Positions 8,621 to 49,526 are shown, numbered from the stretch's first letter. The stretch is 64,000 nucleotides of DNA from an uncultured Gammaproteobacteria bacterium (GCA_964364425.1 CAYIMB010000002.1:17436-81435), one strand, 5' to 3'. Notes: generated from the letters alone by a model not told the origin. Numbers and translations: made by a program.

Positions 8621-8667
8621 ACAAAAAAATGGCTAACTTTAGCCATAAAAAACTGTGCGTACGCACA
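8621..8667 (-). terminator. Tandem hairpins downstream of the minus two-gene cassette: ATGGCTAAAGTTAGCCAT + T-run and CTGTGCGTACGCACAG
   Basis: Perfect 18-bp and 16-bp palindromes. T-run on the minus strand. Confidence 0.5.
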
Positions 8668-8682
8668 GATTTTTGTCTGAGA

Positions 8683-9000
8683 TTACACGCCTCGTTCTAG
8701 AGCCACCAATTTGGCAAATGGTTGTAAGAGTTGCCTCAGTTGACTGAGTGATACCCCGTATTCGCTTGTGTTTTGGCTCAAATCTGCAATCACTTCGTAC
8801 AACCGTCGCAGTTCTTTGCGTTGTTTTGCCGGTGCTCCACCAAAGGCGGAGAAACTGGCCAACTCCAACGCTCTAAATAGGCAGCTCTGGGCATGCTGTT
8901 GATCATTTTTTGCTTGCAAAGATTCCGCCCGCGCTAACTCACTCTCAATGTTCATGAGTTGTGTGGCCAAAGAAAACGTAGCCCAACGTTCAGCCGTCAT
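8683..9000 (-). CDS. Hypothetical helical protein (105 aa), second gene of the cassette
   Basis: ORF overlapping the upstream gene by ATGA (8997-9000). Confidence 0.45.
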   Translation of the reverse strand: MTAERWATFSLATQLMNIESELARAESLQAKNDQQHAQSCLFRALELASFSAFGGAPAKQRKELRRLYEVIADLSQNTSEYGVSLSQLRQLLQPFAKLVALERGV

Positions 9001-9344
9001 AACGCCAGCCGCTCAGTAATCACGGCCGCTACTTGCTGTTGAATAGCCGGATTTTGAATCAAGGTTTGTGTATTGCCTTGTTTGGGCCTGATGTTGATCA
9101 AAGACGTAAATTCCACCTGCTCTCCTTGAGGCCGCCCCGGAAAAATATTTGCTCCCCAGACATTTTTTTGTTTTGAACCTGAATCTAACAACACTGCCTC
9201 CGCATCTGCATGCAACTCACCACCAATGGCCAGAATTTTTTTATCAATATCCACTACCACCTTGACCATATCGCCGAAGGTGTCTTGAGCTAAGGCCAGA
9301 ACTTGTTCTTTTGGAAGTTTGTCGGTAACGATTTGAATTTCCAT
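8997..9344 (-). CDS. Hypothetical protein (115 aa; resembles conserved DUF-type small proteins, ...DMVKVVVDIDKKILAIGGELHADAE...)
   Basis: ORF. DUF-type family assignment is from memory only. Confidence 0.45.
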   Translation of the reverse strand: MEIQIVTDKLPKEQVLALAQDTFGDMVKVVVDIDKKILAIGGELHADAEAVLLDSGSKQKNVWGANIFPGRPQGEQVEFTSLINIRPKQGNTQTLIQNPAIQQQVAAVITERLAL

Positions 9345-9364
9345 GATTCCACTCTAGCAAAAAA

Positions 9365-9378
9365 GTGTGCACGTGCAC
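9365..9378. promoter_or_regulatory. TGTGCACGTGCACA palindrome upstream of the minus two-gene cassette
   Basis: Perfect palindrome. Related to CTGTGC-N4-GCACAG at 8652 and 49511. Confidence 0.4.
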
Positions 9379-9386
9379 AGGTGTAG

Positions 9387-9460
9387 TTCTACTCACAGAA
9401 TCAAATCGATTTTTACGGGATTTGATGCTCTGAGCAGAGGAGGATGGTTGGCGGTCCCAT
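9387..9460 (+). repeat. Direct repeat R2 (74 nt)
   Basis: See R1. Confidence 0.85.
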
Positions 9461-9476
9461 CACTCCCCGGAAGGTA

Positions 9477-10229
9477 CTACCGAACGGCCGTCCAGACCCC
9501 CATGTCGTCGCCGAAGGGCACGGCCAGGCCCACGTAGATCCGGCACGTGTCGCCGGAGCCGCTGCTGCTGGTCTTCTCGTAGAGGGTGACCGTGTGGTCG
9601 TCCGACGTGACGGTGAAGCCGCCGCAGTCGTCCGACCAGTTGGCGCCGGAAGACCACTCGGCCTGGATGTCCACCCACGAGTGGTCGCTCAGGTCCGTGG
9701 TGGACGGGCTGAACATCAGGGTGTCCGTGGACGCGGACACGCTGGCCGACGCGGAGCCGCCGGACCCGTACCAGGCCCAGATGGTGGCGGGGTAGGTGAG
9801 GCCGCCGCTTGCGTCGCGGGTGACCACAATCCTGAGGACCGTGGTAGCGCTGTCGCCCGTGTCCACGACCGCGGTGTCGGTCACGGAGGTGTCCGCGGTG
9901 TCGCCGGTGCCGTCGCAGTCGGTGTCCACGCCGTCGGTCGGATCCTCGGTCGCGCCGGGGTTCACCGTGGCGTCGCGGTCCGCGCAGTCGCCGCCGAACG
10001 GGGAGTACCCGCGGGGGCGCCGGGTGGCCCAGAGGTCGGAGCCGGGCGCGCCGTAGCCGTCGCGGTCGCCGTCCCACCAGTAGTGGGTGATGACGATCCG
10101 GCTGGTACGGGACAGCGCGGTGTTGCGGACTTCCATGGTCTCGGCGCGGTCGTTGGCGGGGGCCTTGGTCTCTACGACCGGGGCGGTGGAGCGGTCACAG
10201 GCCGCCAGAATCAGAAGCAGGGACGACAT
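9477..10229 (-). CDS. GC-rich lipoprotein with Asp-rich MopE-like putative metal-binding repeats
   Basis: Signal peptide plus lipobox LAAC. Motif DCADRD..VNPGATE..DG.DTDCDG. Foreign-looking GC-rich codon usage. Confidence 0.6.
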   Translation of the reverse strand: MSSLLLILAACDRSTAPVVETKAPANDRAETMEVRNTALSRTSRIVITHYWWDGDRDGYGAPGSDLWATRRPRGYSPFGGDCADRDATVNPGATEDPTDGVDTDCDGTGDTADTSVTDTAVVDTGDSATTVLRIVVTRDASGGLTYPATIWAWYGSGGSASASVSASTDTLMFSPSTTDLSDHSWVDIQAEWSSGANWSDDCGGFTVTSDDHTVTLYEKTSSSGSGDTCRIYVGLAVPFGDDMGVWTAVR

Positions 10230-10463
10230 GGGGTTCTCCCGGAGAATGAGTTTGGCCCTGAAGATGGCACCGAACTCAAGTGAAGGTCATTTCAAGCTGC
10301 GGTTGGCGTTTCTTAGGTACGTGTGAAACCTCCCCAAAAGCACTCAACACCCTTAGGGCAGGGCCAGCAAAAATACATGACAATCGAACCCTTGTCAATA
10401 ATGGGCCTTAATGCCAAAAACACTCAAAATTGGCTTGTCCTAAGGAAATCCACCCCAGTAGAC

Positions 10464-10491
10464 TTTACAAACTAAAAAATGTTGTTATAAT
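10464..10491 (+). promoter_or_regulatory. Putative tuf promoter TTTACA-16-TATAAT
   Basis: Hexamers read directly, about 60 nt upstream of the tuf ATG. Confidence 0.45.
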
Positions 10492-10550
10492 CAGCTTTGT
10501 GTTTCGAGATAATCGAAATTATTTTTACTTAATTCCTAAAGGGAACCTCA

Positions 10551-11741
10551 ATGGCTGACAAGTTTGACCGCTCAAAACCGCACGTCAACGTGGGTACCAT
10601 TGGTCACGTTGACCATGGAAAAACCACCACCACAGCTGCTATTTTAGCTGTGCTTAACGCTGTCGGCGGTAAGGCTCAACAGAAATCTGTTGACCAAATA
10701 GACGCTGCTCCAGAAGAAAAAGCACGTGGTATTACTATCAATACCGCTCACGTGGAGTATGAGACTGAAAAACGTCACTATGCTCACGTGGACTGTCCAG
10801 GTCACGCTGACTATGTGAAGAACATGATTACCGGTGCCGCCCAGATGGATGGGGCCATTTTAGTTGTGTCCGCCGCCGACGGTCCTATGCCTCAAACCCG
10901 TGAACACATCCTCTTGGCTCGCCAAGTCGGAGTGCCTTACATTGTGGTGTTCTTGAACAAAGTTGACCAAGTAGACGACCCAGAGTTGTTGGATTTAGTG
11001 GAAGTGGAAATTCGCGACTTGCTCAAGAAATATGAATTCCCAGGTGATGAAACACCAATGATCCGAGGGAGTGCCTTGAAAGCCTTGGAAAATCCAAAAG
11101 ATTCAGCGGCCAACAAGTGTATCTTGGACCTCATGAACGCCTTGGATACCTATATTCCAGAGCCAAAACGTGACGTAGACAAGCCTTTCTTAATGCCAAT
11201 TGAGGACATCTTCTCTATTGAAGGTCGTGGCACAGTGGTCACCGGACGGATTGAACGTGGCATGATCAAACTCAACGAAGAAGTGGAAATTGTGGGTTTG
11301 ACTCCAACCGCTAAAACAGTCGTGACCGGTATTGAAATGTTCAACAAACAGCTGGACGAAGGTCGTGCCGGTGATAACGCTGGTGTGTTGTTGCGTGGTA
11401 CCAAGAAAGAAGAAGTTCAACGTGGACAAGTCTTGGCAAAGACCGGAACCATCACTCCTCACACTGAATTTGAGACAGAAGTATATATTCTGTCCAAAGA
11501 AGAAGGCGGCCGTCACACTCCATTCCTAAAAGGCTATAAACCTCAATTCTACATGCGGACCACTGATGTCACAGGTGAGGTGATATTGCCAGAAGGAACT
11601 GAAATGGTGATGCCAGGTGACACCATGAAGCTCAGCGTTAAGTTGATTGCCCCAGTCGCCATGGAAGAACAACAACGCTTCGCCATCCGTGAGGGTGGTC
11701 ACACCGTAGGCGCCGGAGTTATTACTAAGATTCTCAAATAA
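10551..11741 (+). CDS. tuf: Elongation factor Tu
   Basis: GHVDHGKTT and DCPGHADY motifs. 396 aa. Confidence 0.95.
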
Positions 11742-11757
11742 CATAAGAACACTATAG

Positions 11758-11796
11758 CTTCGCCCCCGGTAGGGCAGAGAAAACCCGGGGGCGAAG
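11758..11796 (+). terminator. 12-bp GC hairpin after tuf (CTTCGCCCCCGG...CCGGGGGCGAAG), weak U-tract
   Basis: Perfect inverted repeat read from sequence. Confidence 0.4.
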
Positions 11797-11812
11797 TAGC
11801 ACTTTCAACACC

Positions 11813-12172
11813 ATGACCACTAAGACAGTCAAGAAGCCAACTGAAGTCAATGGAAATGAGGAGCCAAAGTCTCGTATTCGCGTGAAAATTCGCGCTTACG
11901 ACTCCAAGATCATTGATCAGTCCACCAAGACTATTATAGAAACGGCTTTACGCAGCGGAGCCACTATTGCAGGTCCAGTGCCGTTGCCTACAGAAAAGCA
12001 CCGCTACACTGTGCTCAAATCGACCTTTGTGCATAAGAACGCACGGGATCAGTTTGAAATGCGGGTACATAAGCGCTTGATTGATATAGTCAACCCAAAC
12101 GCCAAGACCATTGATGACCTGTCTCACCTGAACCTTCCCTCAGGTGTTGACGTGGAAATGAAAATGGTATAA
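11813..12172 (+). CDS. rpsJ: 30S ribosomal protein S10
   Basis: S10 homology. Confidence 0.9.
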   Translation: MTTKTVKKPTEVNGNEEPKSRIRVKIRAYDSKIIDQSTKTIIETALRSGATIAGPVPLPTEKHRYTVLKSTFVHKNARDQFEMRVHKRLIDIVNPNAKTIDDLSHLNLPSGVDVEMKMV

Positions 12173-12307
12173 TCTCCGTCTACTTCAGTCTGGTCCGGGA
12201 CCGGTGGTGCGGATCTAAGGGCTCTCAGCCCAAGGAAATCACCCACATGCCCAAAGCCAGAAAGGACAAATAATTACATATAAACCCAAACCATACCCCA
12301 AAAATAG

Positions 12308-12359
12308 CGGTGATCTACGTATATCAAACCATTGGCGTATGTAGACCACCGTTTTTCTT
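12308..12359 (+). terminator. Attenuator-like hairpin + GTTTTTCTTT, 10 nt upstream of rplC
   Basis: 13-bp stem with one mismatch followed by a T-run, in the 196-nt rpsJ-rplC spacer. Confidence 0.35.
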
Positions 12360-12368
12360 TACACCACT

Positions 12369-12986
12369 ATGAAAGGACTGATTGGCGAAAAATTGGACAT
12401 GACCCAGATCTTTGCGGAAGACGGCAATGCCTATGCCGTGACCCGTATTCAAGTTGGTCCATGTGTGGTGGCTCAGGTCAAAAACAAAGACAAAGATGGG
12501 TATACCGCTGTGCAGGTGGCTTGGGGGAACAGCAAAAACGTGTCAAAACCAAGAGCAGGGCAAACAAAAGACCTGAACGCTAATCGTGTTCTGCGTGAAT
12601 TTCGATTTGACGCAGACGACAAATCCTTTGGTGAAATTAAACGCGGTGACACTTGGACCGCTGAATTGTTTAAAGCGGGTGATGTGGTAGACGTGGTGGC
12701 CACTTCAAAAGGTAAAGGTTTTGCCGGTGTGATGAAACGTCACAACTTTCGGGGTGGGGCTGCTACTCATGGCCAACGGCATTCAGCTCGTGAACCTGGG
12801 TCTATTGCTTCTAAACGCCAAGGTCCAGTGGCTAAAGGGCAACGTATGGCAGGGCATATGGGCGTAGACCGCGTGACCATTAAAAATCTGAAAGTGATTC
12901 AAGTAGATGCAGCATCAAACGTGGTGTATGTCCTTGGATCAGTTCCTGGTGCCAGACACAGCGTAGTGCAAATTACTGCAGCCTAA
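12369..12986 (+). CDS. rplC: 50S ribosomal protein L3
   Basis: L3 homology. Confidence 0.9.
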   Translation: MKGLIGEKLDMTQIFAEDGNAYAVTRIQVGPCVVAQVKNKDKDGYTAVQVAWGNSKNVSKPRAGQTKDLNANRVLREFRFDADDKSFGEIKRGDTWTAELFKAGDVVDVVATSKGKGFAGVMKRHNFRGGAATHGQRHSAREPGSIASKRQGPVAKGQRMAGHMGVDRVTIKNLKVIQVDAASNVVYVLGSVPGARHSVVQITAA

Positions 12987-12990
12987 ACTT

Positions 12991-13623
12991 ATGGCAACAC
13001 TTACTGTATTCAATTTAGCTGGAAAAGAAACAGGCAAAGTGGAAGCTTCTGATAAAGTGTTTGGTGTCAAACCAAACAAAGACTTGTTGTATCAAGTGGT
13101 GTTGTGGTACCAAAACCAACGCCGCAAACCGTATGCTCATACAAAAACAAAAGGTGAGGTGCGTGGTGGTGGAGCCAAACCATGGGCCCAAAAGGGGACT
13201 GGTCGGGCCAGACACGGGTCTATCCGCGGTCCACAATGGCGCAAGGGTGGTGTTGTCCACGGTCCACGCAAAGAACGTGACTACACTTCCTCTTTATTGC
13301 CAGTGAAAATGCGGCGCAAAGCGTTGGCCATGTCCTTGTCAGACAAACTTTCCTCAGGAAATTTGGTGGTCGTAGATGATTTGAAACTTCCAGAGTTGAA
13401 AACCAAAGCTTTACTTCAGATTTTGGGTGCTCTCCCGGTGAAACATCACTCAGTCTTATTCGCTACTTCAAAGAAAGACGCAGTGGTAGAGAAAGCAGCC
13501 CGCAACTTGCCTAAAATAGACGTCTCAGTCGCCACTTCTTTAAATGCAGAGCAAGTCTTGCAAAAGAAGGTCTTGGTGTTGGATACTGCTGGTGTTGAAG
13601 CCTTAGTCAAACAACTTTCTTAA
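12991..13623 (+). CDS. rplD: 50S ribosomal protein L4
   Basis: L4 homology. Confidence 0.9.
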   Translation: MATLTVFNLAGKETGKVEASDKVFGVKPNKDLLYQVVLWYQNQRRKPYAHTKTKGEVRGGGAKPWAQKGTGRARHGSIRGPQWRKGGVVHGPRKERDYTSSLLPVKMRRKALAMSLSDKLSSGNLVVVDDLKLPELKTKALLQILGALPVKHHSVLFATSKKDAVVEKAARNLPKIDVSVATSLNAEQVLQKKVLVLDTAGVEALVKQLS

Positions 13624-13627
13624 TCAT

Positions 13628-14023
13628 ATGGCTATCAATTTTTGGAAGAGAAACAAGAAACCAGAGGTAGAAACTCCAGAGGAAACAAAGGAGAGAGCAG
13701 CTACCGCCGCTCCGGCCAAAGGAACACCAAAGGCAGCCTCTTCCACCGGCGACAGCAAAAATGCTCCTCAAGTGTTACTGCGTCCAATGTTGACTGAAAA
13801 GTCCACTCGGGCCGGGGTGTATTATTTCCAGATTCCAATTTCTGCCAACCGAGCTGAAGTGAAGAAGGCGGTGAAATCTGTATACGGTGTAACTCCAGAA
13901 AAAGTAAACATCATTAACCGCTTAGGCAAGAAAGTGACTTTTGGCGGACGTGGCGGATCTAGGTCTGACTGGAAGCGCGCCATTGTGATGCTCAAAAAAG
14001 GTGAATCAATCTCTGTAGAATAA
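13628..14023 (+). CDS. rplW: 50S ribosomal protein L23 (N-terminal ~40 aa extension)
   Basis: L23 core at the C-terminus. Position in operon. Confidence 0.85.
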   Translation: MAINFWKRNKKPEVETPEETKERAATAAPAKGTPKAASSTGDSKNAPQVLLRPMLTEKSTRAGVYYFQIPISANRAEVKKAVKSVYGVTPEKVNIINRLGKKVTFGGRGGSRSDWKRAIVMLKKGESISVE

Positions 14024-14025
14024 GT

Positions 14026-14877
14026 ATGGCTATCAAGATATTAAAACCAGTCACCGCCGGAACCCGCAACTCAAGCGTGCAGGATTTTTCTGATATCACC
14101 AAGTCCAAACCAACCAAGAGTTTGACGGTTTGGTTGAAAACCAAAGCCGGTCGCAACAACCAAGGTAAAATTACCACCCGTCATCATGGTTCTGGTGTGA
14201 AGCGCTTGTACCGCATGGTGGATTTCAAAATGCAAAAGTACGACCTACCTGCGAAGATTGAATCCGTTGAATATGACCCATACCGCAGTGCTCGCATCAT
14301 GCTGCTCAAATATCCAGACAGCTCAGTCACTTATGCACTTGCTCCTGTTGGCGTGAAGGTTGGAGAAACTATTATCTCTTTCTCTGGAGAAGGTGAAATC
14401 AAAACTGGTAACCGCTTGATGTTGAAACACATTCCAGTCGGAATGGCCGTTCACAACGTTGAGATGACTCCAGGTAAAGGTGGGGAAGTGGTTCGTTCCG
14501 CTGGTTCTCTGGCTACCATCATGGCCAAAGAGGGAACTATGGTCCAAATCAAAATGCCAAGTGGTGAAATTCGGAATTATATGGATACTTGCCGAGCATC
14601 TATTGGACAGGTTTCAAACGTAGAATGGAGAAACGTACGTTGGGGCAAGGCTGGTCGTAACCGTTTACGCGGTATCCGTCCTACCGTTCGTGGTAAAGCT
14701 CAGAATCCAGTTGACCACCCACACGGTGGAGGTGAAGGTAACCAACCAATTGGTTTGAAGCATCCAAAGACTCCATGGGGTAAACCAGCTTTGGGTGTGA
14801 TTACTCGTAAAGATCATAAGCGTTCAGATGCATTCATTGTACGTAGGCGTCCAAAACGTATTGGTAAGATTAAATAA
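14026..14877 (+). CDS. rplB: 50S ribosomal protein L2
   Basis: L2 homology. Confidence 0.95.
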
Positions 14878-14881
14878 GCAT

Positions 14882-15253
14882 ATGTCTAGATCTCTCAAAA
14901 AAGGACCATTTGTTGCAGACCATTTGTTAGCCAAGGTGAAAAAAGCCAAGGCCAGCAATTCACGTGCTCCAATTAAGACCTGGTCCCGTTCTTCTACCAT
15001 TACTCCTGACATGTTGGGCATGACCTTTGCTGTGCATAATGGACGTAAATTTTTGGACGTGTATGTGGTGGAAAATATGGTTGGTCATAAATTAGGTGAA
15101 TTTTCTCCAACCAGAACATTTAAGTCTCATGGTGGGAAGATTGCAAAAGAGCAGGCCAGTGCGGCCGCGGCTGCAGGAGCTCCAGGCGCTCCAGGCGCGG
15201 CAGCTCCCGGAGCAGCAGGCGCTGGCGCACCTGCTGTAGTAGCCAAAAAATAA
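14882..15253 (+). CDS. rpsS: 30S ribosomal protein S19 with Ala/Pro/Gly-rich C-terminal tail
   Basis: ATG 14882 ([10 protein letters not shown]..). The listed 14828 start is upstream read-through. Confidence 0.9.
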
Positions 15254-15256
15254 TCT

Positions 15257-15619
15257 ATGGAAGTAACAGTCACATTACGACATTTCCGTACCTCCCCAGA
15301 CAAAGTTCGTTTGGTGGCTGGTTTGATTCGCGGCAAAGATGCTGATGAAGCAGATGTTATCTTGACTCATACTCAAAAAGGTTCAGCTGGAGCATTACGC
15401 AAACTGTTGAAATCAGGTTTAGCGGATGCAGAGCATAACTACAAGTTGGATCCAAAAGACATGAAAGTCAAAGAAATTCGGGTAGATTCTGGTGTGACCA
15501 TGAAACGCTACCGCCCCCGGGCTTTTGGTCGGGCCGCTCCAATTCGCAAGAAAGCTTCTCATGTGACCTTAGTTTTGGCGGAGAAGACCAAAAAAGAATC
15601 AGGTAAAGACAAGAAATAA
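15257..15619 (+). CDS. rplV: 50S ribosomal protein L22
   Basis: L22 homology. Confidence 0.9.
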   Translation: MEVTVTLRHFRTSPDKVRLVAGLIRGKDADEADVILTHTQKGSAGALRKLLKSGLADAEHNYKLDPKDMKVKEIRVDSGVTMKRYRPRAFGRAAPIRKKASHVTLVLAEKTKKESGKDKK

Positions 15620-15624
15620 CCACT

Positions 15625-16419
15625 ATGGGACATAAAGTAAATCCACGTGTATACAGAATTGGAACGGTGTATCAACCCACCTCTCGTTGGTTTACCAAAA
15701 AACAAGACTTTCCAACCAAGTTGAAGGAAGACCTGGAAATTCGTGAAATTATCAAAACAAAGTTCCGTAACTCTGGGGTTGCTCGCGTAGATATAGAACG
15801 GTCTTCAGGCGCAGTCACCATTACCATGCATACCTCCAAACCGGGTGTGATTATTGGCCGTGGTGGATCTGGTATTGATGAATTGAAAAAGACCATCAAA
15901 AAAAATGTCTACGGTAGCACTAAGATTGTTATCAACATTTCTATTCAGGAAGTGGCCAAACCAGACACGAGCGCTGAGCTGATTGTGCAAAATATTGCTG
16001 AACAGTTAGAAAAACGTATCCCATTCCGTCGAGCTATGAAACGGGCTATTGAATCAAGTCGCCGCGCTGGAGCTGAAGGTGTACGCATCACTGTATCTGG
16101 ACGCTTAAACGGTGCTGAAATTGCCCGGACTGAAACACTGACGGAAGGGAGTCTGCCTTTGCACACCTTGCGCGCGAATATCGATTACTCCCGCGGGGTG
16201 GCTCGCACCATTTTTGGAGCTATTGGTATCAAAGTGTGGATCTACACCGGAGATGTGTTTGAAGGTGATGAAAAGAAAGAAGAAGCTGCTCCAGAAAAAC
16301 GTCGCACTTCATTCCGCCGTGGACCAGTTCGTAACGTGGCCGCAAAAGAGGGGACGACCGCGACTCCACGTCCACGCCGCAAAGCCAATGTTCCAACCCA
16401 ACCAGTCAAAGCTGATTAA
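15625..16419 (+). CDS. rpsC: 30S ribosomal protein S3 (C-terminal extension)
   Basis: S3 KH domain. Confidence 0.9.
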   Translation: MGHKVNPRVYRIGTVYQPTSRWFTKKQDFPTKLKEDLEIREIIKTKFRNSGVARVDIERSSGAVTITMHTSKPGVIIGRGGSGIDELKKTIKKNVYGSTKIVINISIQEVAKPDTSAELIVQNIAEQLEKRIPFRRAMKRAIESSRRAGAEGVRITVSGRLNGAEIARTETLTEGSLPLHTLRANIDYSRGVARTIFGAIGIKVWIYTGDVFEGDEKKEEAAPEKRRTSFRRGPVRNVAAKEGTTATPRPRRKANVPTQPVKAD

Positions 16420-16424
16420 CACCT

Positions 16425-16829
16425 ATGTTATTCCCAAAGAAAACCAAATACCGTAAAGGATTTAGACCACAAGTCAGAGGCAAGGCGTCACGCAAGTTGG
16501 AATTGGCCTTTGGATCTTTTGGTCTGAAGTCCTTGGAAGGTGCTTGGGTGACCTCTCGTCAACTGGAAGCTGCCAGACGCGCCATGACTCGGTTTGTAGC
16601 ACGCGGTGGAAAGATTTGGATTCGCGTGTTCCCTGACCGGCCAATCACCTTGAAAGGTGGAGAAATCCGCATGGGTGGTGGTAAGGGAGCCGTGTCTCAC
16701 TATGTAGCTGAGGTAAAAGCCGGTATGGTGTTGTTTGAGATTGATGGTGTGCCAGAGGATAAAGCCTTAGAAGCTTTACGCCTGGCTTCCCACAAGCTTC
16801 CTGTTTTAACCAGCGTTATTCGCCAATAA
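16425..16829 (+). CDS. rplP: 50S ribosomal protein L16
   Basis: L16 homology. Confidence 0.9.
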
Positions 16830-16833
16830 CAGT

Positions 16834-17025
16834 ATGGAAGTCAAAGACTTAAGAAATAAATCAGTTGAGGAGCTCCAAGCATTGTTGAAACAATGGCACG
16901 AGGATATCCGCCGCATGCGCTTTGAAGCAGCCTCAGGCTCTCTGAAATTGGTGCATCAAGTGGACATAGCCAAGAAGAATATTGCCAGAGCCCTCACCAT
17001 TTTGAACGACAAACAAGCAAAGTAA
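16834..17025 (+). CDS. rpmC: 50S ribosomal protein L29
   Basis: Size and position. Confidence 0.8.
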
Positions 17026-17029
17026 CCAT

Positions 17030-17299
17030 ATGACAGACACAACAACAAAACGCCTGACCGTTCACCGCAAACTCAGCGGTGTGGTGACGTCTGACAAAAT
17101 GGATAAAACCATTGTGGTGAAAGTAGAGCGCAGGGTACAACATCCAAAATACCGAAAGTTCTACATCCAATCTGAAAAATTCCATGTCCATGATGAAAAG
17201 AACCAGTTCAAAGTGGGGGATGTGGTGGAATTCTGTGAAACACGCCCACTGTCTAAGACCAAACGCTGGCGCGTGATCTATCCTAAGGCAACGGCATAA
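17030..17299 (+). CDS. rpsQ: 30S ribosomal protein S17
   Basis: S17 homology. Confidence 0.85.
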
Positions 17300-17304
17300 A
17301 TTAT

Positions 17305-17676
17305 ATGATTCAACTACGTAGCCGCCTCAAGGTGGCAGACAACACGGGAGCTAAGGAAGTCGAGTGCATTATGGTGCATGGCGGTTTTCAACGTCGATAT
17401 GCAGAATTAGGTGATGTGATTACCTGTGTGGTTAAAGTGGCAACACCTCACGGCATGATCAAGAAGTCTGAAGTTGGACATGCGGTGATTGTACGCCAAC
17501 GCAAAGAAGTTAGACGTAAAGACGGGACGGCTATCCGTTTTGATGACGCTGCAGTGGTGTTTGTAGACAAGAAAACTGGCGAACCACGGGGAACTCGTAT
17601 TTTTGGGCCGGTGGCCAGGGAAGTCAAAAACCGAGGATTCTCTAAGATCGCCTCATTAGCTACTGAAGTGCTGTAA
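17305..17676 (+). CDS. rplN: 50S ribosomal protein L14
   Basis: L14 homology. Confidence 0.9.
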
Positions 17677-17680
17677 ACCT

Positions 17681-18022: not shown

Positions 18023-18032
18023 CCACACGAAC

Positions 18033-23993: not shown

Positions 23994-24404
23994 ATGAAAA
24001 TATTAGCCATTGATTACGGTGAACAACGCTTAGGGTTAGCTGTCAGTGATGATAACCACACCATGGCCATGTCTAAAGGACTGCTGGAGGGCTTAAGTCA
24101 AACTAAGATCATTCAGAAAATTAAAGCCATAGTGAATTTGGAAAAAGTAGGCTTGCTTGTGGTGGGATTGCCCATTGGTATGGATAACCAGCCCACAGCT
24201 TGGACAGAAGAGGTCAAACGGTTTGCTGAAAAACTCCGTAGTCATCTAACTATTCCGGTCCAAATGGTGGATGAACGTCTGACTACCCAAATGGCCAAGA
24301 CGCTGCTGGCTGGTACGGGACAGACGAAACAAAAGAAAGACCAAGTGGCCGCACAGATTTTTTTGCAAGATTACTTGGATCAACAACGCAACGCTAAGAC
24401 ATAA
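23994..24404 (+). CDS. ruvX: Holliday junction resolvase-like RuvX/YqgF
   Basis: MKILAIDYGEQRLGLAVSD N-terminus. Confidence 0.8.
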   Translation: MKILAIDYGEQRLGLAVSDDNHTMAMSKGLLEGLSQTKIIQKIKAIVNLEKVGLLVVGLPIGMDNQPTAWTEEVKRFAEKLRSHLTIPVQMVDERLTTQMAKTLLAGTGQTKQKKDQVAAQIFLQDYLDQQRNAKT

Positions 24405-26797: not shown

Positions 26798-26851
26798 GGT
26801 TCGGGGTGGTGGTCGACCACCATCCCTCACCTTCATTGTTTAACAAATCAA

Positions 26852-26878
26852 AACACCGGCCAAGCGCCGGTGTTTTTG
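26852..26878. terminator. Bidirectional rho-independent terminator (AACACCGGC-CAAGC-GCCGGTGTT + T-run) between rplU and recR
   Basis: 9-bp perfect stem. T-run on plus, A-run on the other side. Confidence 0.7.
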
Positions 26879-40691: not shown

Positions 40692-40695
40692 ACTT

Positions 40696-42441: not shown

Positions 42442-43145
42442 TGGGCGTAAGTTACAAACTGCAACAATTTGAAGGGCCCTTAGACGTGTTGTTGCGTTTG
42501 ATTGAAGATGAACAACTTACCATTACGGACGTAAGCCTGGCTCAAGTCACGGAACAGTTCATGCAATATCTCCAACAAATAGAACAAAGATACCCAGAAG
42601 AGCTGGCAGACTTTTTGGTGGTAGCGACCCGGCTCCTCCTGCTCAAATCCCAGGCTCTCCTGCCGTACTTAGTCATAGAAGAGGAAGAAGACCCAAACCA
42701 GCTCACGCGCCAACTCAAAATATACAAAGCCTACGTGGATGCCATGAAGTATGTAGCAGCCCGTCTAGCGTCTAAAGCGTTTTTGTATCAACGGACGTCC
42801 TCATTACTTTCTGGTATTGGTCCGGTATTTGCTCCACCGCCTGACACCAGCGCAGACGTTTTGCGCGAAGTATTTGAGCAAGTCCTAGACGAACTTGCTC
42901 CGGTGGTGCGTATTCCTAAAGCCGCCATAGAAAAAGTCGTCTCTCTGAGAGAAAAAATTTGTCATATCACCGACTTGATTGAAAAAGAAGCGCAACTCTC
43001 CTTCAAACATCTCATGTCCACGGCCGGATCTAAAACAGAGGTTGTGATAACCTTCCTAGCTCTGCTAGAATTGATCAAACAGCGCGTGGTCTGTGTGTCT
43101 CAAGATAAACCATTTTCCGACATAGTGATTCAAAAACCCGTATGA
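42441..43145 (+). CDS. scpA: Segregation and condensation protein A
   Basis: FEGPLDVLLRLI N-terminus. Confidence 0.8.
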   Translation: MGVSYKLQQFEGPLDVLLRLIEDEQLTITDVSLAQVTEQFMQYLQQIEQRYPEELADFLVVATRLLLLKSQALLPYLVIEEEEDPNQLTRQLKIYKAYVDAMKYVAARLASKAFLYQRTSSLLSGIGPVFAPPPDTSADVLREVFEQVLDELAPVVRIPKAAIEKVVSLREKICHITDLIEKEAQLSFKHLMSTAGSKTEVVITFLALLELIKQRVVCVSQDKPFSDIVIQKPV

Positions 43146-43732
43146 ACAATTTAACTCAAACCATAGAAAGTTTGCTCTTGGTGGAACCCAAAGGCTTCAG
43201 CTTAAAACGATTAGCAGGTTTAACTCAAGCCTCTGCAGATGAGGTGAGTGAAGCCGTAGCCGCTTTAGCCCAGCGTTACACGGAAATTCAATCCGGCTTG
43301 CGGTTAGTCCAAGACGGAAACCAAGTGCAACTGACCACCGGACCTGAATCCGCCGTTACCATTCAAGCCTATGTCAAAGATGAAACCTCAGGTGAGCTGA
43401 CCCGTCCATCACTTGAGACACTGACCATTATTGCCTACCGTGGCCCCATTCCAAAATCTGAACTTGAGCTGATCCGCGGGATTAACTGTTCACTGATCCT
43501 GCGCAATCTGTTGATCCGTGGGTTAGTTAGAGAAGAGGCGCAAAAGACCACAGGAGAATCCATCTACAGCGTCACCGTTGACTTCCTTCGTCTGCTGGGA
43601 CTCTCCTCTACCGCTGAGTTGCCAGAATTTGAGAAACTCAACCAAAATGTAGATCTGCAAACTCTGTTGGGTGAATCAGAACAAGAAAAAGATTTTTTCC
43701 TGGCCGGAAAACACCAGTCCAAACCAGAGTAA
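43142..43732 (+). CDS. scpB: Segregation and condensation protein B
   Basis: ScpB winged-helix homology. Operon with scpA. Confidence 0.75.
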   Translation: MNNLTQTIESLLLVEPKGFSLKRLAGLTQASADEVSEAVAALAQRYTEIQSGLRLVQDGNQVQLTTGPESAVTIQAYVKDETSGELTRPSLETLTIIAYRGPIPKSELELIRGINCSLILRNLLIRGLVREEAQKTTGESIYSVTVDFLRLLGLSSTAELPEFEKLNQNVDLQTLLGESEQEKDFFLAGKHQSKPE

Positions 43733-43754
43733 ATAAGTCTGTCTACCACCACGC

Positions 43755-44771
43755 ATGCTCAATCAATTTCTCATTAGTCTTACTTTGGCCGCGCATGTAT
43801 TAGGTTTAACTTTGCCCCAGGTTATTGAGGAAGGGGTGTATGTGGTACCTTCGCTCCTGACTCCAGCCACTGGTGATGTGACGGAACTCAGGGTATTACC
43901 CGCTGTGGTAGACGCCGTTTCACGTCAAGCAGAGCCAATTTCTTCGGTGGAATATCGATTTCTGCCGGTAAGCACCAACCGTCCACAACCTCCATACAAG
44001 GTAGGGACTTCCACCGGGCCTTTAGTGACTGCCAAGTCTGCCGTGTTGCTGGACCAGGCAACCGGAATGGTGCTGTGGCAAAAAAATCCCGACAGCGTGA
44101 GGCCCATTGCCTCCCTGACTAAATTAATGACGGCTGTGGTGTACTTGAAACACCAGCCCTTAGATGGAATGAATCATATTCACACCTTGGCTCCGGAAGA
44201 AAATGCCGTGATTGGGTACAACCTCACCTTTCCTTCCGGAACGCAACTCACCACCGGGTCTTTATTTGGCGCCATGTTGGTGGGCTCCTTAAATAACACC
44301 GCTCTGGCCTTGAATGGCGCGACTGGTTTATCTACAACAGAATTTATAGCCCAGATGAATCAGTTGGCAGAGGAGTTTGGAATGAGACGTACCACGTTTG
44401 TGGATCAGACTGGAGTGAATAACAAAAATGTGGCTACGGCCGGAGATGTGGCTGTGCTCGCTAAGCAAGCCTTTGCCGAGTCGGATATTAATCAGTTTGC
44501 GGATCAGACTTCACTTGAAGTGCGTGACGTGAGTGGTGAGAAGGTCCGCACCGTGCAAGCCACTAACCAGTTGGCCGGAAATACTGATGTTGAGTTGCAA
44601 GGGGCTAAGACTGGAACCACTGCAGAGGCCGGGTACTGTTATGTATTTCAGGTGGTGATAGAAGGTCATTCGGTGATAGGGGTGATTTTGGGTGCGACCT
44701 CGGATGAAAGTCGATTTTCAGATGCCATTAAGCTGATAGATTGGACTAGCCAACAATTTGATTGGAAATAA
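43755..44771 (+). CDS. D-alanyl-D-alanine carboxypeptidase (serine-type, S11 family)
   Basis: Signal peptide. SLTKLMT SxxK motif. Confidence 0.6.
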   Translation: MLNQFLISLTLAAHVLGLTLPQVIEEGVYVVPSLLTPATGDVTELRVLPAVVDAVSRQAEPISSVEYRFLPVSTNRPQPPYKVGTSTGPLVTAKSAVLLDQATGMVLWQKNPDSVRPIASLTKLMTAVVYLKHQPLDGMNHIHTLAPEENAVIGYNLTFPSGTQLTTGSLFGAMLVGSLNNTALALNGATGLSTTEFIAQMNQLAEEFGMRRTTFVDQTGVNNKNVATAGDVAVLAKQAFAESDINQFADQTSLEVRDVSGEKVRTVQATNQLAGNTDVELQGAKTGTTAEAGYCYVFQVVIEGHSVIGVILGATSDESRFSDAIKLIDWTSQQFDWK

Positions 44772-44815
44772 GTCCGTGAGCGGAGTATACTAGATGGAGA
44801 TTAATATTTTTTTAT

Positions 44816-45853
44816 ATGGCAAAAAAGATTCGCATTGCAATTAACGGGTTTGGACGAATTGGACGCACCACCTTTAAGGCGGCTTTGGAACATGAAAATG
44901 AAGTGGAAGTAGTAGCCTTGAATGATTTGGGTTCAGCGGAAAACATGGCCTACTTGTTGAAGTACGACACCAACTACGGGATATATGGACGTGAGATAGG
45001 ATTTGGTACAAATTTTTTGAGTGTGGACGGAAAAAAGTTTAGTTTGTACGCGGAGAAGGATCCTAAGAGGTTGCCCTGGAAAAAGCTCCAGGTGGATGTG
45101 GTGTTGGAATGTACCGGACGTTTTACCAACAAGGATGACGCCGGGAGGCATCTGACTGCCGGAGCTAAACAGGTGATTATTTCTGCGCCGGCTAAATCCG
45201 GAGGACCAATTGGTACGTTTGTGTTGGGCGTAAACGCTCACGCAGGCCGGGCTTGGAAAAAGGCCAAGGGAACAGAGGTGATCTCTAACGCCTCATGTAC
45301 CACTAACTGCATTGCTCCGGTGATGGCGGTGTTGGAGAGTGCCTTTGGAGTGAAGAAAGCACTCATGACCACGGTACATTCGTACACGGCGGATCAAAAC
45401 CTGGTAGATGGCCCACATACAGATTTCCGTCGCGGCCGTTCTGCCGGAGCCAACATAGTTCCTACTTCTACCGGGGCGGCTCTGGCCACTACAGAAACCA
45501 TCCCCAGCCTGAAAGGAAAATTTGATGGGATAGCCATTCGCGTTCCGTCCACTACAGGCTCTCTATCTGATATTACCGCCGTGGTGAAAAAGAAAGTGAC
45601 CGTTCAGTCAGTCAACGCTGCGTTCAAGAAAGCAGCTAAGAATCCGCTATTCAAAGGCATCTTAGCGGTGAGTGAAGAAGAGCTGGTGTCCAAAGATATT
45701 GTGGGTCGTCCGGAATCAGCGATTGTGGATTTGGCCTTGACCATGGTAGTAGGAGATGACCTGGTGAAAGTGTTTGCTTGGTATGATAACGAATGGGCGT
45801 ATTCGTTACGTTTGGTTGAAGAAGCCATCTTGGTGGGTAAGGCGGTTGCCTAA
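44816..45853 (+). CDS. gap: Glyceraldehyde-3-phosphate dehydrogenase
   Basis: NGFGRIGR and SCTTNC. Confidence 0.9.
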   Translation: MAKKIRIAINGFGRIGRTTFKAALEHENEVEVVALNDLGSAENMAYLLKYDTNYGIYGREIGFGTNFLSVDGKKFSLYAEKDPKRLPWKKLQVDVVLECTGRFTNKDDAGRHLTAGAKQVIISAPAKSGGPIGTFVLGVNAHAGRAWKKAKGTEVISNASCTTNCIAPVMAVLESAFGVKKALMTTVHSYTADQNLVDGPHTDFRRGRSAGANIVPTSTGAALATTETIPSLKGKFDGIAIRVPSTTGSLSDITAVVKKKVTVQSVNAAFKKAAKNPLFKGILAVSEEELVSKDIVGRPESAIVDLALTMVVGDDLVKVFAWYDNEWAYSLRLVEEAILVGKAVA

Positions 45854-45881
45854 TTTAGACAGGAGAGTACACTGGCGCGTT

Positions 45882-47489
45882 ATGGAAACTGAATTATCTA
45901 GACCCGGTATACCTAGACACAAACCCCAAGAGTTTGAGCATGTAGTCATGGTTGTGGTTCCAGAGGGAGCCATCCAAGCAGATTTGCAACAATTGGAGAA
46001 GCGCGGGGTGAAGGTGCGTGATCAAGTAGTCACGGTTGAATATGAATACGGAGATAACGACATGGCCCTGGCTGATTATCAGTTTTCAGACGGAGCGTTT
46101 TGTTTGGTGAAAAAGTATGATAGCAATGTGCATTGGCCGGATGTTGTGGCTGAAAAGAGCAAGGCACAAGAATGGGCCGGTGATGTTCCTTTTTTGGTCA
46201 AAAAGAAACCTGAGAGCATTTCAACTATCCCGTCTGAAGGCTCACGTTCGCCTGAACCGCCACCCCCTAGTCCGCCTCCAGCGCCGCCTCCTGAAACTCC
46301 ACCGGCCTCTCCCACCCCGCCTGAGTGGCCATCTTTTGAATCCGAGAGAGAGTGGGAGTTATTGCAAAGGTATTGGAGGTTAGTGGCTCAAATTGAAGAT
46401 GCCCAACTGAAGATAGAACAGGCAAAGATTACCGAACGGAGACAGGAAATTCCTATTCAAACACGACGTTTAGAGATTGGACAAAAAAATTTACAACAAT
46501 TTCTAGTTCATCATCCGGAGTACACAAACCTTCCCAAGCCTTTGGAGGTTGCCAGTATAGATTTAGCGAGCGTAGAGGGCAGGAGGCGAGCCAAGGCGTT
46601 GTTGTTAGATAGTGATTTATCTCCAGTCGAAGCGGGCAAGCGCATCATAGCCATTGAGAAGGCGGGAGCTAAAATCGAATTACATCATCCAAAGTTGGAA
46701 CAGGGAGTTGGCACCAGTGCTGTGCGGCCTCCGCTCAAAACGGTCATGACTGACTTGAAGGAGGCACAGTACCGTGTTGGCCGTTTGAATAGTTTAGGGT
46801 TGTTGAGTCAACTCCAACATGGGGACACCCGGCATAATAATTTGCTGCGCTTAAAATCCACACGCCAGAGTTTAGAATATATTTTAAAACGATTTTCACC
46901 TCCCCCTCACGCCGACTCCTCCCTTAGCCGAGATTTTTTAGCTTTGCTGCATGGAGTGGTGGACGCCGTGAAGAAGGTTGAACAAGGGACCCAAAAAAAC
47001 TTTTTGTCTCGCTGGTGGTCACAGAATGAACTGATTCAACAACACAGAAAAATTGGTCAGGGCTTAAAAAAGTTAGAACAATTTACCCAGGAACACAGGG
47101 AGTTTGTGTACGCTTGCGCCCAGATCGAATTTCAACTAAGGTGGGCCAACACTTGGAGTTTTCATGTTCTCCGTCACCGTCCAGCAGTTCTCCGCCTGGA
47201 ACATCCTGTACCTGTTCATGATCCTGCTCGGCACCCTGATCCTGCTGTCCGCGCTGGTCATCCAAGACTGGCTCTGGATGAACAGGGAGACCGGTGTCTC
47301 GGCAGGAACGGCAGTCATGAACTTGCGCTTCTGGCAGTTAGCCTCCTGCTTGGTGGGGATCTCCTCCGCCTACGGAGCAGTCCCGCCGGTGCTGTTTGTG
47401 ACCGTCCCGACCTGGTTCCTCCTGACCCGCATGGTCGGGATGCCCCTGAGCGCGGCCATGATCGCTGCGGCGTGGTATGTGGCGTGTAG
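45882..47489 (+). CDS. Hypothetical Pro-rich protein
   Basis: ATG 45882. After ~47160 the frame runs into GC-rich DNA and translates to Arg/Pro junk until a chance stop. Confidence 0.45.
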   Translation: METELSRPGIPRHKPQEFEHVVMVVVPEGAIQADLQQLEKRGVKVRDQVVTVEYEYGDNDMALADYQFSDGAFCLVKKYDSNVHWPDVVAEKSKAQEWAGDVPFLVKKKPESISTIPSEGSRSPEPPPPSPPPAPPPETPPASPTPPEWPSFESEREWELLQRYWRLVAQIEDAQLKIEQAKITERRQEIPIQTRRLEIGQKNLQQFLVHHPEYTNLPKPLEVASIDLASVEGRRRAKALLLDSDLSPVEAGKRIIAIEKAGAKIELHHPKLEQGVGTSAVRPPLKTVMTDLKEAQYRVGRLNSLGLLSQLQHGDTRHNNLLRLKSTRQSLEYILKRFSPPPHADSSLSRDFLALLHGVVDAVKKVEQGTQKNFLSRWWSQNELIQQHRKIGQGLKKLEQFTQEHREFVYACAQIEFQLRWANTWSFHVLRHRPAVLRLEHPVPVHDPARHPDPAVRAGHPRLALDEQGDRCLGRNGSHELALLAVSLLLGGDLLRLRSSPAGAVCDRPDLVPPDPHGRDAPERGHDRCGVVCGV

Positions 47490-47541
47490 CTTCGGCTACT
47501 TCTACTGCATCTACGCCCCGCGCAAGCTGCAGACTTTCTAG
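47164..47541 (+). CDS. GC-rich small membrane protein (4 TM)
   Basis: Convincing TM ORF in a different frame inside the GC-rich segment ~47160-47600. Confidence 0.5.
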   Translation: MFSVTVQQFSAWNILYLFMILLGTLILLSALVIQDWLWMNRETGVSAGTAVMNLRFWQLASCLVGISSAYGAVPPVLFVTVPTWFLLTRMVGMPLSAAMIAAAWYVACSFGYFYCIYAPRKLQTF

Positions 47542-47671
47542 GTCCGGGGAGCAGTTCGCACGTTTGAACGCGCCGAGATAGTAGGCAGTCAGCCTCTCTC
47601 GGTGCGTTCTTCAGTTTCAAAGTTTTTATGTTCACCAATCACCAGATTGGCCAGGTCCAAAAGTTATCCAT

Positions 47672-47695
47672 AAGACCGCGAAACGGTCTTTTTAC
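47672..47695 (+). terminator. Rho-independent terminator AAGACCG-CGAAA-CGGTCTT + TTT
   Basis: Read directly. Confidence 0.6.
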
Positions 47696-47707
47696 GTTTT
47701 TACCATG

Positions 47708-47717
47708 GTGACCCCAC
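47708..47717. repeat. GTGACCCCAC, 10-bp direct repeat of the tRNA-Glu 3' end (49368-49377)
   Basis: Exact 10-mer. Brackets the lower-GC AAA-ATPase segment. Confidence 0.4.
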
Positions 47718-47810
47718 TGCATGGTTTCCAGAACTAGTTAATCAAAGAGAGTATATATGGAGTTTGATTGAAAATCTACAGTCTGCGATGGTTGGAGGTA
47801 GTCAATAGTC

Positions 47811-47934
47811 CTATACAAAAAATACACTACTTTTATGCCTAAATTAGGCATTTTTATTGTGTAAATTATCTTTTGTATACTAGACTATACAAAAGATAAC
47901 ACTATCTGTATACTCTGTAGTATAAGGATAAAAT
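47811..47934. promoter_or_regulatory. AT-rich region with nested palindromes (TTATCTTTTGTATA-CTAGAC-TATACAAAAGATAA; GCCTAAATTAGGC; TATACT..AGTATA) upstream of the AAA ATPase gene
   Basis: Inverted repeats read directly. Operator-like. Confidence 0.45.
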
Positions 47935-49371
47935 ATGAATCAAATTCTACTGCAATATGTCCAAAACCAATTAGTTCGTGCCGGGCAGCGACTTAACGCG
48001 AATACTATTGATGCTCAGGGTAAAAAGTACCCACAACGCAATATCTACATCAAAATAAAAAAACACGTTGATGATTTTATAAGCGGAAAGTCATTAACGC
48101 GCTGGATAGTTATTCCGGGCCTGAGAGGTGTAGGGAAGACTACGGCTGTGTCTCAAATTTATTTTTACCTTACCCAAGATCAAAAAGTAAAAAGTAATAA
48201 TATCCTCTACACCTCACTAGATGAAGTCACAGATTTAGGTGGAAACCTACGAGAAGTTTTGGGAACATATGAGAAGGTACTTGGAAAGAGTTACGAGCAG
48301 CAGAATGAGCTCATTTTTATTTTACTTGATGAAGTGCAAGTTGACCCTAAGTGGGCATCAATACTTAAAATTCTTCACGAGAAATCAAAAAAAGTCTTTA
48401 TTATTTGTACTGGATCCTCTGCTGTAGAATTACAATCAAACGCCGATGCAGAACGACGAGCAATTTTTGAACGGTTATTTCCCATGAGTTTTACCGAATT
48501 TCAGATGGTGCAACGCGGCATATACCCCACAAAGGGACTGAAGTATGATTTACAACAAGCTTTGTATCAAGCATCTTCTGTAGAAGTAGCCTTTCAGAAA
48601 CTACAGGCATTAAACCAAGTAATCTTATCATACTGGTCAAAGGTTGATGAATTATCAGTTTCTGAATTTCTTAAAGTGGGGACACTCCCATTTGCGTTGA
48701 GCTATTCTGATGAATATCAGGTCTACCAAGCTATCAATCGTTTACTTGAACAGGTCATTGATAAAGATATCCGAGCACTTGGCAGTTTTAGTAATGAAAC
48801 GTTAAGTAAAATTAAACAGCTACTTTTTTTACTAGCAGATAGCAACGGTTCACTCGCTTTTTCAACCATCGCTAAGACTTTGGATATGCAACGACCAACT
48901 CTGAATAGCATCTTTGATGCCCTTGAAAAAACAGAGTTACTGATAAGAGCTTTACCACAAGGAGCAAACAATAAGCGAGTTACAAAACCATCTAAGTTTT
49001 TATTTATGAGCCCTGCTCTACGGTTAGCATTATTGAGTATTTCTGGACTCAAACAGACATTCGATACTCAACAAGGAGCTTTACTAGAAGATGTAGTAGC
49101 ATTGCATTACTATCGAGAGTTTGTAACAAAGCGTAAGGCTTCACTCATGTATGATGCAACTGAGGGTGGTGCAGACTTTATTGTGAATTTTATCCAACAC
49201 CGTAGGATTGTTGTTGAGGTTGGGATGGGGAGCAAAGATTCAAAACAAGTAGTGAAAACAATGAGTAAAGTTCAGAGTGATTATGGAGTAGTAATTAGCT
49301 CTACAGAACTAGGGGTTGATGAAATAAACAGAATAGTTTTTCTACCTATTAAGTTCTTTTTATTGATGTGA
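47935..49371 (+). CDS. AAA+ ATPase, COG1373/DUF4143-like
   Basis: Walker A GLRGVGKTT and Walker B LLDEVQ. Visibly AT-richer than its neighbours. Confidence 0.6.
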   Translation: MNQILLQYVQNQLVRAGQRLNANTIDAQGKKYPQRNIYIKIKKHVDDFISGKSLTRWIVIPGLRGVGKTTAVSQIYFYLTQDQKVKSNNILYTSLDEVTDLGGNLREVLGTYEKVLGKSYEQQNELIFILLDEVQVDPKWASILKILHEKSKKVFIICTGSSAVELQSNADAERRAIFERLFPMSFTEFQMVQRGIYPTKGLKYDLQQALYQASSVEVAFQKLQALNQVILSYWSKVDELSVSEFLKVGTLPFALSYSDEYQVYQAINRLLEQVIDKDIRALGSFSNETLSKIKQLLFLLADSNGSLAFSTIAKTLDMQRPTLNSIFDALEKTELLIRALPQGANNKRVTKPSKFLFMSPALRLALLSISGLKQTFDTQQGALLEDVVALHYYREFVTKRKASLMYDATEGGADFIVNFIQHRRIVVEVGMGSKDSKQVVKTMSKVQSDYGVVISSTELGVDEINRIVFLPIKFFLLM

Positions 49372-49440
49372 CCCCACCGGGAATCGAACCCGGATTTCAG
49401 CGTTGAGAACGCCGCGTCCTAACCGTTAGACGATAGGGCC
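49369..49440 (-). tRNA. tRNA-Glu (anticodon CTC)
   Basis: Cloverleaf folded by hand on the reverse complement. Anticodon loop TTCTCAA. T-arm CCGGGTTCGATTCCCGG. Confidence 0.75.
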
Positions 49441-49510
49441 ATGCCGCGCTAGACTATCCAAAAAGCTACCAACCGTCAAACCTGAACACTTAAATTCCTT
49501 AAGGATTTAG

Positions 49511-49526
49511 CTGTGCATACGCACAG
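49511..49526. promoter_or_regulatory. CTGTGCATACGCACAG palindrome (CTGT-N8-ACAG) upstream of rlmH
   Basis: Shares 22 nt with 8652-8670. Confidence 0.4.

Follow-up and report, generated by a model that had tools for sequence, protein, structure and literature searches.

Three look-alike short palindromes in a Patescibacteria genome resemble transcribed hairpins rather than SOS boxes

Repetitive extragenic palindromic (REP) elements and their REP-associated tyrosine transposases (RAYTs) are known from Enterobacteria and Pseudomonas, and in Neisseria and Haemophilus terminators are built of inverted pairs of DNA-uptake sequences. Here we compared three short palindromes, P1, P2 and P3, in a 64-kb stretch of bacterial DNA (the window, which throughout means the whole stretch) with these elements, with ordinary intrinsic terminators and with the gammaproteobacterial LexA box, whose motif in E. 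coli is CTGT-N8-ACAG (PMC8565304). An earlier note had presented them as three CTGT-N8-ACAG sites of SOS-box-like geometry, to be understood either as operators or as stable RNA hairpins. The window belongs to a metagenome-assembled genome (MAG) of Patescibacteria, that is, of the Candidate Phyla Radiation (CPR), from Hainich groundwater; identical proteins are named 'Patescibacteria group bacterium' in NCBI, and identical contigs come from Hainich groundwater 0.2-um metagenomes. On balance we favor the reading that P1, P2 and P3 are copied short hairpin modules, of which P1 and P2 would serve as intrinsic terminators insulating a leaderless DUF5674 operon, with P2 fused to the operon's promoter, while P3, which lacks a U-tract, would have little or no function.

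All three palindromic strings are present in the sequence and all three are intergenic. P1 (8653-8668, - strand) is a perfect 16-bp palindrome, CTGTGCGTACGCACAG; P2 (9366-9379, - strand) is a perfect 14-bp palindrome, TGTGCACGTGCACA; and P3 (49511-49526, + strand), CTGTGCATACGCACAG, forms a 6-bp stem with an AUAC loop. The coordinates given earlier were correct for P3 but one base too low for both P1 and P2. The CTGT-N8-ACAG outline fits P1 and P3 but not P2, whose 16-mer reads GTGT...ACAG, and it occurs in the window at chance level (2 found versus 1.06 expected, with two or more in 27 of 100 shuffles). The motif truly common to the three is TGTGC-N4-GCACA. Its exact form was found at three sites versus about 0.09 expected, and summation over seven spacings still gave 3 versus 0.74. 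For a second copy of the P1 16-mer at up to 3 mismatches, the expectation was 0.14, and two copies were seen in none of 100 shuffles. The resemblance among the three palindromes is well above chance. P1 and P3 are identical at 18 of 19 nt at loci 41 kb apart; the 22 nt that they had been said to share overstates a stretch of 19 nt, CTGTGC[G/A]TACGCACAGATT, with one mismatch. The site at 24350, assigned to repeat family D18, had been taken for another copy, but it lies inside the ruvX coding sequence and was rejected as a chance match.

P1 and P2 lie between fusA and tuf, where all the relevant elements are on the - strand. In the direction of transcription, these are a gene with a MopE motif (9477-10229), a 73-nt hairpin, P2 followed by C and U6, an extended -10 element, the DUF5674 gene (8997-9344, with its ATG at 9344), a gene for a 105-aa protein (8683-9000, stop at 8683-8685) that overlaps it, P1 and its U6, a second hairpin with U7, the other copy of the 73-nt sequence, a promoter and a gene for a 96-aa protein. 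P2 and P1 bracket a two-gene operon (8683-9344, - strand) that encodes the DUF5674 protein and a lineage-specific helical protein of 105 aa and that keeps its synteny in four relatives.

The anatomy of P1 and P2 supports the alternative of the earlier note, namely RNA hairpins. P1 occupies the terminator position attributed to one copy, 14 nt past the stop codon of the 105-aa gene. TTTTTT (8647-8652) comes after it on the - strand and ATTTTTG on the + strand, which gives it the shape of a bidirectional terminator, and the scan scored it as terminator-like on both strands. Its folding energy is -10.9 kcal/mol, or -12.7 kcal/mol with the A/U flanks. Directly downstream is a second terminator hairpin, ATGGCTAAAGTTAGCCAT with TTTTTTT (8629-8646, - strand; -8.2 kcal/mol), which in transcription order reads ATGGCUAAAGUUAGCCAU and then U7. 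P2 stands about 100 nt past the stop of the MopE-motif gene and 21 nt upstream of the DUF5674 ATG, and on the - strand it is followed by C and TTTTTT (9359-9364). The hairpin of a 6-bp stem and a tetraloop that had been described holds for P1 and P3, but the P2 stem has 5 bp. In the terminator scan of the - strand, P1, P2 and the hairpin at 8646-8629 were each recorded as a hairpin with a T-run downstream of - strand genes. P1 (U6) and P2 (C and U6) thus both combine a GC-rich hairpin with a U-tract on the transcribed strand, and a gene is transcribed toward each of them; P3 has no such U-tract. In these respects, P1 and P2 resemble intrinsic terminators that follow just downstream of genes, and P1 does so also in having A/T runs on both sides and a second terminator behind it. 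They differ from ordinary terminators in that their stems are only 5-6 bp long, that P2 is fused to the -35/spacer region of the next promoter, and that the hairpins are alike across unlinked loci, which ordinary terminators need not be.

P2 is also the copy that had been placed in a promoter position, and it does overlap a conserved leaderless promoter. Its first six - strand bases, TGTGCA (9379-9374), precede the -10 box by exactly 17 nt, and the palindrome overlaps the -35/spacer region. The extended -10 element TGcTAGAGT (9351-9358, - strand) is 6 nt upstream of the DUF5674 ATG, which implies a leaderless transcript. This arrangement has counterparts elsewhere in the window: Shine-Dalgarno (SD) motifs are practically missing upstream of its genes, the regions before the start codons are A/C-rich, and many genes, e.g. 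rpsL, map, cysS and the 96-aa gene, have a -10-like hexamer 6-7 nt before the ATG. These features suggest that leaderless mRNAs are widespread in this CPR genome.

To follow the palindromes in relatives, we used contigs recovered through homologs of RlmH (L123-L127) and of DUF5674 (L132, L133, L134 and L139). The -10 hexamer, TAGAGT or TAGACT, stands exactly 6 nt before the DUF5674 ATG in the window and in all four DUF5674 relatives, and in each of the four lineages with the element (the window, L132, L133 and L139) TGTGCA precedes the -10 box by exactly 17 nt. P2 itself is identical in L133. In L132 and L139, the left arm TGTGCA, the T-run and the TG of the extended -10 persist, and the right arm has decayed; L139 carries, 12 nt upstream, a perfect extra copy, GTGCACGTGCAC. 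P2 is absent from L134 (68%), where a canonical TTGATT-16-TAGAGT promoter is found instead.

P1 was seen in the window only and is absent from the orthologous spacers of L132, L133 and L139. In these three relatives, 3 nt after the stop of the 105-aa gene, the sequence resumes that the window has after about 150 extra nt. The extra stretch (8530-8682) consists of P1, the second hairpin and copy 1 of the 73-nt repeat (8530-8602, - strand), a long imperfect hairpin with a z-score of -3.4. Copy 2 (9388-9460, - strand), a long hairpin with the same z-score located 17 nt past the stop codon of the MopE-motif gene, is 72/73 identical to copy 1. Copy 2, the upstream one, is conserved at this place in the four relatives, whereas copy 1, the downstream one, is specific to the window lineage. 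We had considered the direct repeats as the borders of a mobile cassette, but the synteny of the operon is kept in the four relatives that have a single repeat copy. Therefore, the operon is not a recent insertion, and only the downstream stretch of about 150 nt is new. A 1240-bp assembly contig from another sample stops just before copy 2 (9380 versus 9388).

P3 lies, as had been described, upstream of rlmH and next to a tRNA-Glu gene. Its neighbors are the - strand tRNA-Glu(ctc) gene, of which it lies about 70 nt upstream, and the + strand gene rlmH, whose GTG (49545) comes 18 nt later. Its folding energy is -10.5 kcal/mol. No U-run follows it on either strand, and it is absent from the list of terminator-like hairpins. 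The sole + strand gene upstream encodes an AAA_14 ATPase and is 140 nt off, across the antisense tRNA. The tRNA-Glu promoter, TTGACG-17-TAGTCT (49451-49479, - strand; -35 at 49479-49474, -10 at 49456-49451), is kept in all relatives and forms the ancestral border of the spacer. Beyond it, the window has a lineage-specific insertion of 65 nt (49480-49544, + strand) that carries P3 and a small palindrome, TCCTTAAGGA (49496-49505). P3 is absent from L124-L127 (71-78% RlmH identity), in which the tRNA-Glu promoter region runs into the rlmH ATG. In L123 (83% RlmH identity), a 32-nt insertion holds the P3 ortholog CCGTGCATGTGCACGG (CCGTGC-ATGT-GCACGG), in which the second stem pair is altered on both sides, from U:A to C:G. 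As a result, CTGT/ACAG is lost and pairing is kept, with hairpin energies of -10.4 kcal/mol in L123 and -10.5 kcal/mol in P3. Comparison of the spacers indicates that each palindrome sits in a lineage-specific insertion.

Taken as transcript elements, the three palindromes would form a small family of short GC-rich stem-loops with the core GUGC-N4-GCAC, which reached the spacers between genes by insertion or copying no further back than the last few tens of percent of protein divergence. They most likely work at the RNA level rather than as operators for a protein. The P2 hairpin with its U6 would end the transcript of the MopE-motif gene right before the leaderless DUF5674 promoter, and the inserted stretch that holds P2 would also supply this promoter with its T-rich spacer and the TG of the extended -10. 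The P1 hairpin with its U6, backed by the second hairpin and U7, would end the DUF5674/105-aa transcript ahead of the next promoter. P3 would be the same hairpin, lacking a U-tract and placed in the rlmH spacer or leader, and is probably neutral or at most a stabilizer of an mRNA end. Judged from hairpin and U-run anatomy, termination at P1 and P2 is a prediction, and the benefit may be the shielding of a leaderless, SD-less gene from read-through. The family resemblance would then stem from copying of the hairpin modules.

Several points weigh against this reading. The P2 stem is short and weak (-5.9 kcal/mol), and because P3 has no U-tract, termination cannot be its role. The constraint conserved in L132 and L139 may be that of the promoter rather than of the P2 hairpin. 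Covariation among eight family members was not significant, with one true compensatory pair and a score that was reached by 116 of 500 shuffles. A terminator role by itself gives no explanation for the 18/19 identity of P1 and P3. Finally, P2 is centered at about -28 of the conserved leaderless promoter, a classical position for a repressor.

The copying itself may have been a general process. We tentatively consider, without thinking it probable, that 'portable' terminator hairpins, in families of few copies each, are copied from spacer to spacer in this genome, the insertion of about 150 nt being a mosaic of P3-like, 47835-like and 73-nt modules. A terminator-like hairpin at 47835-47851 (+ strand; ATGCCTAAATTAGGCAT with TTTTT) is a relative of the second hairpin behind P1: the two (8629-8646 and 47835-47851) align over 31 nt, flanks included, with a G:C to C:G swap. 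A second look-alike pair of terminator-like hairpins, at 3752-3780 and 26850-26876, also has similar flanks. The P1 insertion thus appears as a mosaic of three hairpins (P1, the second hairpin and the 73-nt hairpin), all of which have look-alikes at other places in the window. The look-alike hairpin pairs carry similar tails (TTTTGTCTC), and the + strand tail of P1 is the same, ATTTTTGTCT. If this account is true, a REP-like process would operate in a tiny, SD-less genome rich in leaderless genes, and transcript ends and even promoters could be rewired fast, as where P2 gives a spacer and an extended -10. A copying mechanism, if demonstrated, would add a new, though small, case of REP-like dynamics for the CPR.

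A true REP-like family would go further: a mobile palindrome mobilized in trans, e.g. by a Y1/RAYT-type transposase, with many genomic copies and only secondary roles as terminator or stabilizer. We regard this as rather unlikely. As REP elements do, the three copies form hairpins, are extragenic and belong to insertions that vary among close relatives; P1 and P3 are nearly identical although unlinked; L139 has a tandem second copy; the window holds other hairpin families; and copies stand between same-strand genes, where termination or mRNA stabilization is possible. However, the element of 14-16 nt is far shorter than known REPs, about half their length, and it has no conserved flanking tetranucleotide, the flanks having only ATT in common. 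No transposase, including RAYT, was seen among the window open reading frames (ORFs) scanned. The copies seen were also few. No further copy was found in an extra ~9 kb of the same genome (L135/L137), giving three in ~73 kb of host DNA, and in ~45 kb of relatives' DNA the motif occurred at orthologous positions only. When the 16-mer CTGTGCRTACGCACAG was scanned against the collection of genome contigs, at least 118 stretches had matches; those listed were scattered chance matches and an unrelated repeat family in an Acutalibacteraceae MAG. No CPR genome with multiple matches was among those listed, and the two CPR matches (L017 and L033) lay in or beside ORFs and were not homologous to the window. 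The scan of viral contigs for the palindrome returned three chance matches. In metagenome contigs, the 23-mer of the tRNA-Glu promoter had no match and the pattern of P2 plus promoter had four, none beside a DUF5674 gene; the lineage is not represented in this JGI collection.

An operator for a dimeric regulator other than LexA, which would recognize GTGC-N4-GCAC and repress the DUF5674 operon and rlmH, is in our view unlikely, slightly more so than a REP-like family. Besides the position of P2 in its promoter, this view draws on P3, centered at about -26 from the rlmH start codon, on an arm spacing of 10 bp that fits a dimer, and on the enrichment of the exact motif. Nevertheless, P1 has a 3' location without a promoter close by, no -10 box was found downstream of P3 when an rlmH promoter was sought there by analogy with P2, and the sites are missing from the orthologous promoters of slightly more distant relatives in which the genes persist. 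Degenerate sites were not in excess in the window (27 matches at up to 2 mismatches versus 35 expected), which is atypical of a regulon motif. No helix-turn-helix protein besides HrcA was found in the window, and HrcA, its sole recognizable regulator, was rejected as the palindrome binder because it has its own operator, a CIRCE-like (controlling inverted repeat of chaperone expression) inverted repeat TTAGCAGTC-N9-GAGTGCTAA at 51671-51697. This repeat has one mismatch to the consensus, lies 11 nt before hrcA (51708-52415) and stands ahead of grpE-hsp20-dnaK-dnaJ.

The proteins of the operon are poor candidates as well. DUF5674 was modeled with a pLDDT of 96.6 and had no fold match in the PDB, and its alignment shows invariant H/D/E residues. 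The 105-aa protein has only six homologs and was modeled as a helical bundle. Searches with the operon proteins against PDB sequences, NCBIfam and Pfam gave nothing. In these structure models, neither protein looks like a repressor or DNA binder, and autoregulation by the operon's own products was rejected for lack of a DNA-binding fold.

The palindromes could also be functionless debris that arose in fast-evolving spacers when replication erred locally (by template switching or slippage) and that is kept only because it is recent, which we consider improbable. Presence, absence and decay among close relatives would be expected of debris, as would the lack of significant covariation and the additional small palindrome in the P3 insertion. 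In contrast, independent local errors would not yield 18/19 identity at a distance of 41 kb, the stem was retained through a two-sided change in L123, and a correctly oriented U-run is present at both P1 and P2.

Apart from the 16-bp length and the CTGT/ACAG ends of P1 and P3, which match the E. coli LexA box (PMC8565304), nothing at these loci supports the operator reading with LexA, and a LexA/SOS box is essentially excluded: beyond the chance-level frequency of the pattern and the misfit of P2, the spacers within CTGT/ACAG (GCGTACGC in P1 and GCATACGC in P3) are GC-rich where an AT-rich one is expected, the ends become CCGT/ACGG in the L123 ortholog, sites are absent from L124-L127 and L134, the neighbors (DUF5674, the 105-aa ORFan, rlmH and tRNA-Glu) are not SOS genes, recR, ybaB, dnaB and ruvX stand in the window without a site, and the scanned ORFs of the window, precomputed Pfam matches included, showed no LexA-type protein. 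The phylum is also the wrong one, and the part of the literature consulted counts a Patescibacteria LexA study among the cases in which LexA evolved toward a direct repeat and not the canonical palindrome (PMC7739468).

These results are mostly a correction: the supposed SOS box turns out as short hairpins, two of which look like ordinary terminators, and hence they should not be the starting point for predicting a LexA regulon in a CPR genome. The positive side is modest. In a Patescibacteria lineage that appears to rely on leaderless, SD-less genes, terminators and a promoter seem to have been acquired, copied and lost again within very short evolutionary distances, and insulation of each such gene from read-through may matter.

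Two further ideas about the motif were rejected. The palindromes have hairpin arms of common sequence across the genome, as do the uptake-sequence terminators of Neisseria and Haemophilus, but the half-sites are depleted across the window rather than enriched (TGTGCA, 22 versus 50 expected; GTGCAC, 8 versus 18), which speaks against DNA-uptake sequences. TGTGCAC occurs only twice in 64 kb, as the two arms of P2, and the depletion of TGTGCA and GTGCAC may reflect restriction-site avoidance. The palindromes are also 14-nt alternating pyrimidine-purine tracts, but tracts of at least 14 nt are not enriched in the window (3 versus 3.8 expected), and the idea of Z-DNA was dropped. Searches with Rfam covariance models reached the gathering score for two tRNAs only and gave nothing credible at E <= 10 around P1/P2 or P3.

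Promoter-like modules were seen around both loci. After copy 1 of the 73-nt repeat, a promoter TTGACT-16-TATGAT (- strand) precedes the 96-aa gene. The module TTGACTGGTCAAATCCGCGATCTATGATTG (8468-8498), with its -10 box 6 nt before the ATG of that gene, is conserved in L132, L133 and L139, and it recurs at 63131-63161 upstream of another small - strand ORF. In the rlmH spacer, CTAGACTA (49450-49456) is a -10 hexamer on both strands, TAGTCT on - and TAGACT on +, and from its sequence may double as a divergent promoter of rlmH, a gene for which no other promoter can be recognized. In relatives, the rlmH ATG abuts the -35 of the tRNA-Glu promoter. On the other side of the tRNA, the AAA_14/DUF4143 ATPase gene (47935-49371) overlaps the tRNA-Glu 3' end with its own 3' end, and a near-perfect palindrome of 34 bp, TTATCTTTTGTATAC-TAGACT-ATACAAAAGATAA (47866-47899), lies just upstream of it. 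A different gene occupies that place in L125, so the ATPase gene looks like an insertion beside the tRNA.

The 10-bp palindrome AAATCGATTT is over-represented far more strongly than the motif of the earlier note, with eight exact copies (1975, 4408, 5038, 8159, 8545, 9403, 35829 and 39299) versus 0.11 expected; variants of the form A[AT]ATCGAT[AT]T occur at 228, 1099, 29301, 43952 and 62346. The motif lies in the divergent spacer 4404/4477 (GTAAATCGATTTAC), precedes the fusA ATG by 22 nt and stands before asnS (GTAAATCGATTTAC), and a variant is located upstream of dnaB. It also recurs at the 3' ends of genes from a paralogous family and within the 73-nt hairpin, in whose apical loop the ATCGAT core is kept in L132, L133 and L139. 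ATCGAT alone is not enriched (19 versus about 17), and nearly all copies are A/T-flanked. AAATCGATTT may be a regulator site or a methylation-related motif.

The window also contains rpsL, rpsG, fusA, tuf, rplU, adk, map, ruvX, recR, ybaB and dnaB, together with PFOR, tRNA synthetase genes, scpAB, gap, hrcA-grpE-dnaK-dnaJ and a TraG-like gene. The last encodes a TraG/VirD4-like coupling protein of 838 aa (DUF8128, TrwB_AAD_bind) at 60253-62769, beside core genes. Three paralogous ORFs of about 290 aa without a Pfam match (236-1099, 1068-1976 and 7294-8160) have conserved 3' ends, CCGTTACCGGACAGACCTC...TAAAATCGAT, and more paralogs of this family are located upstream in L137.

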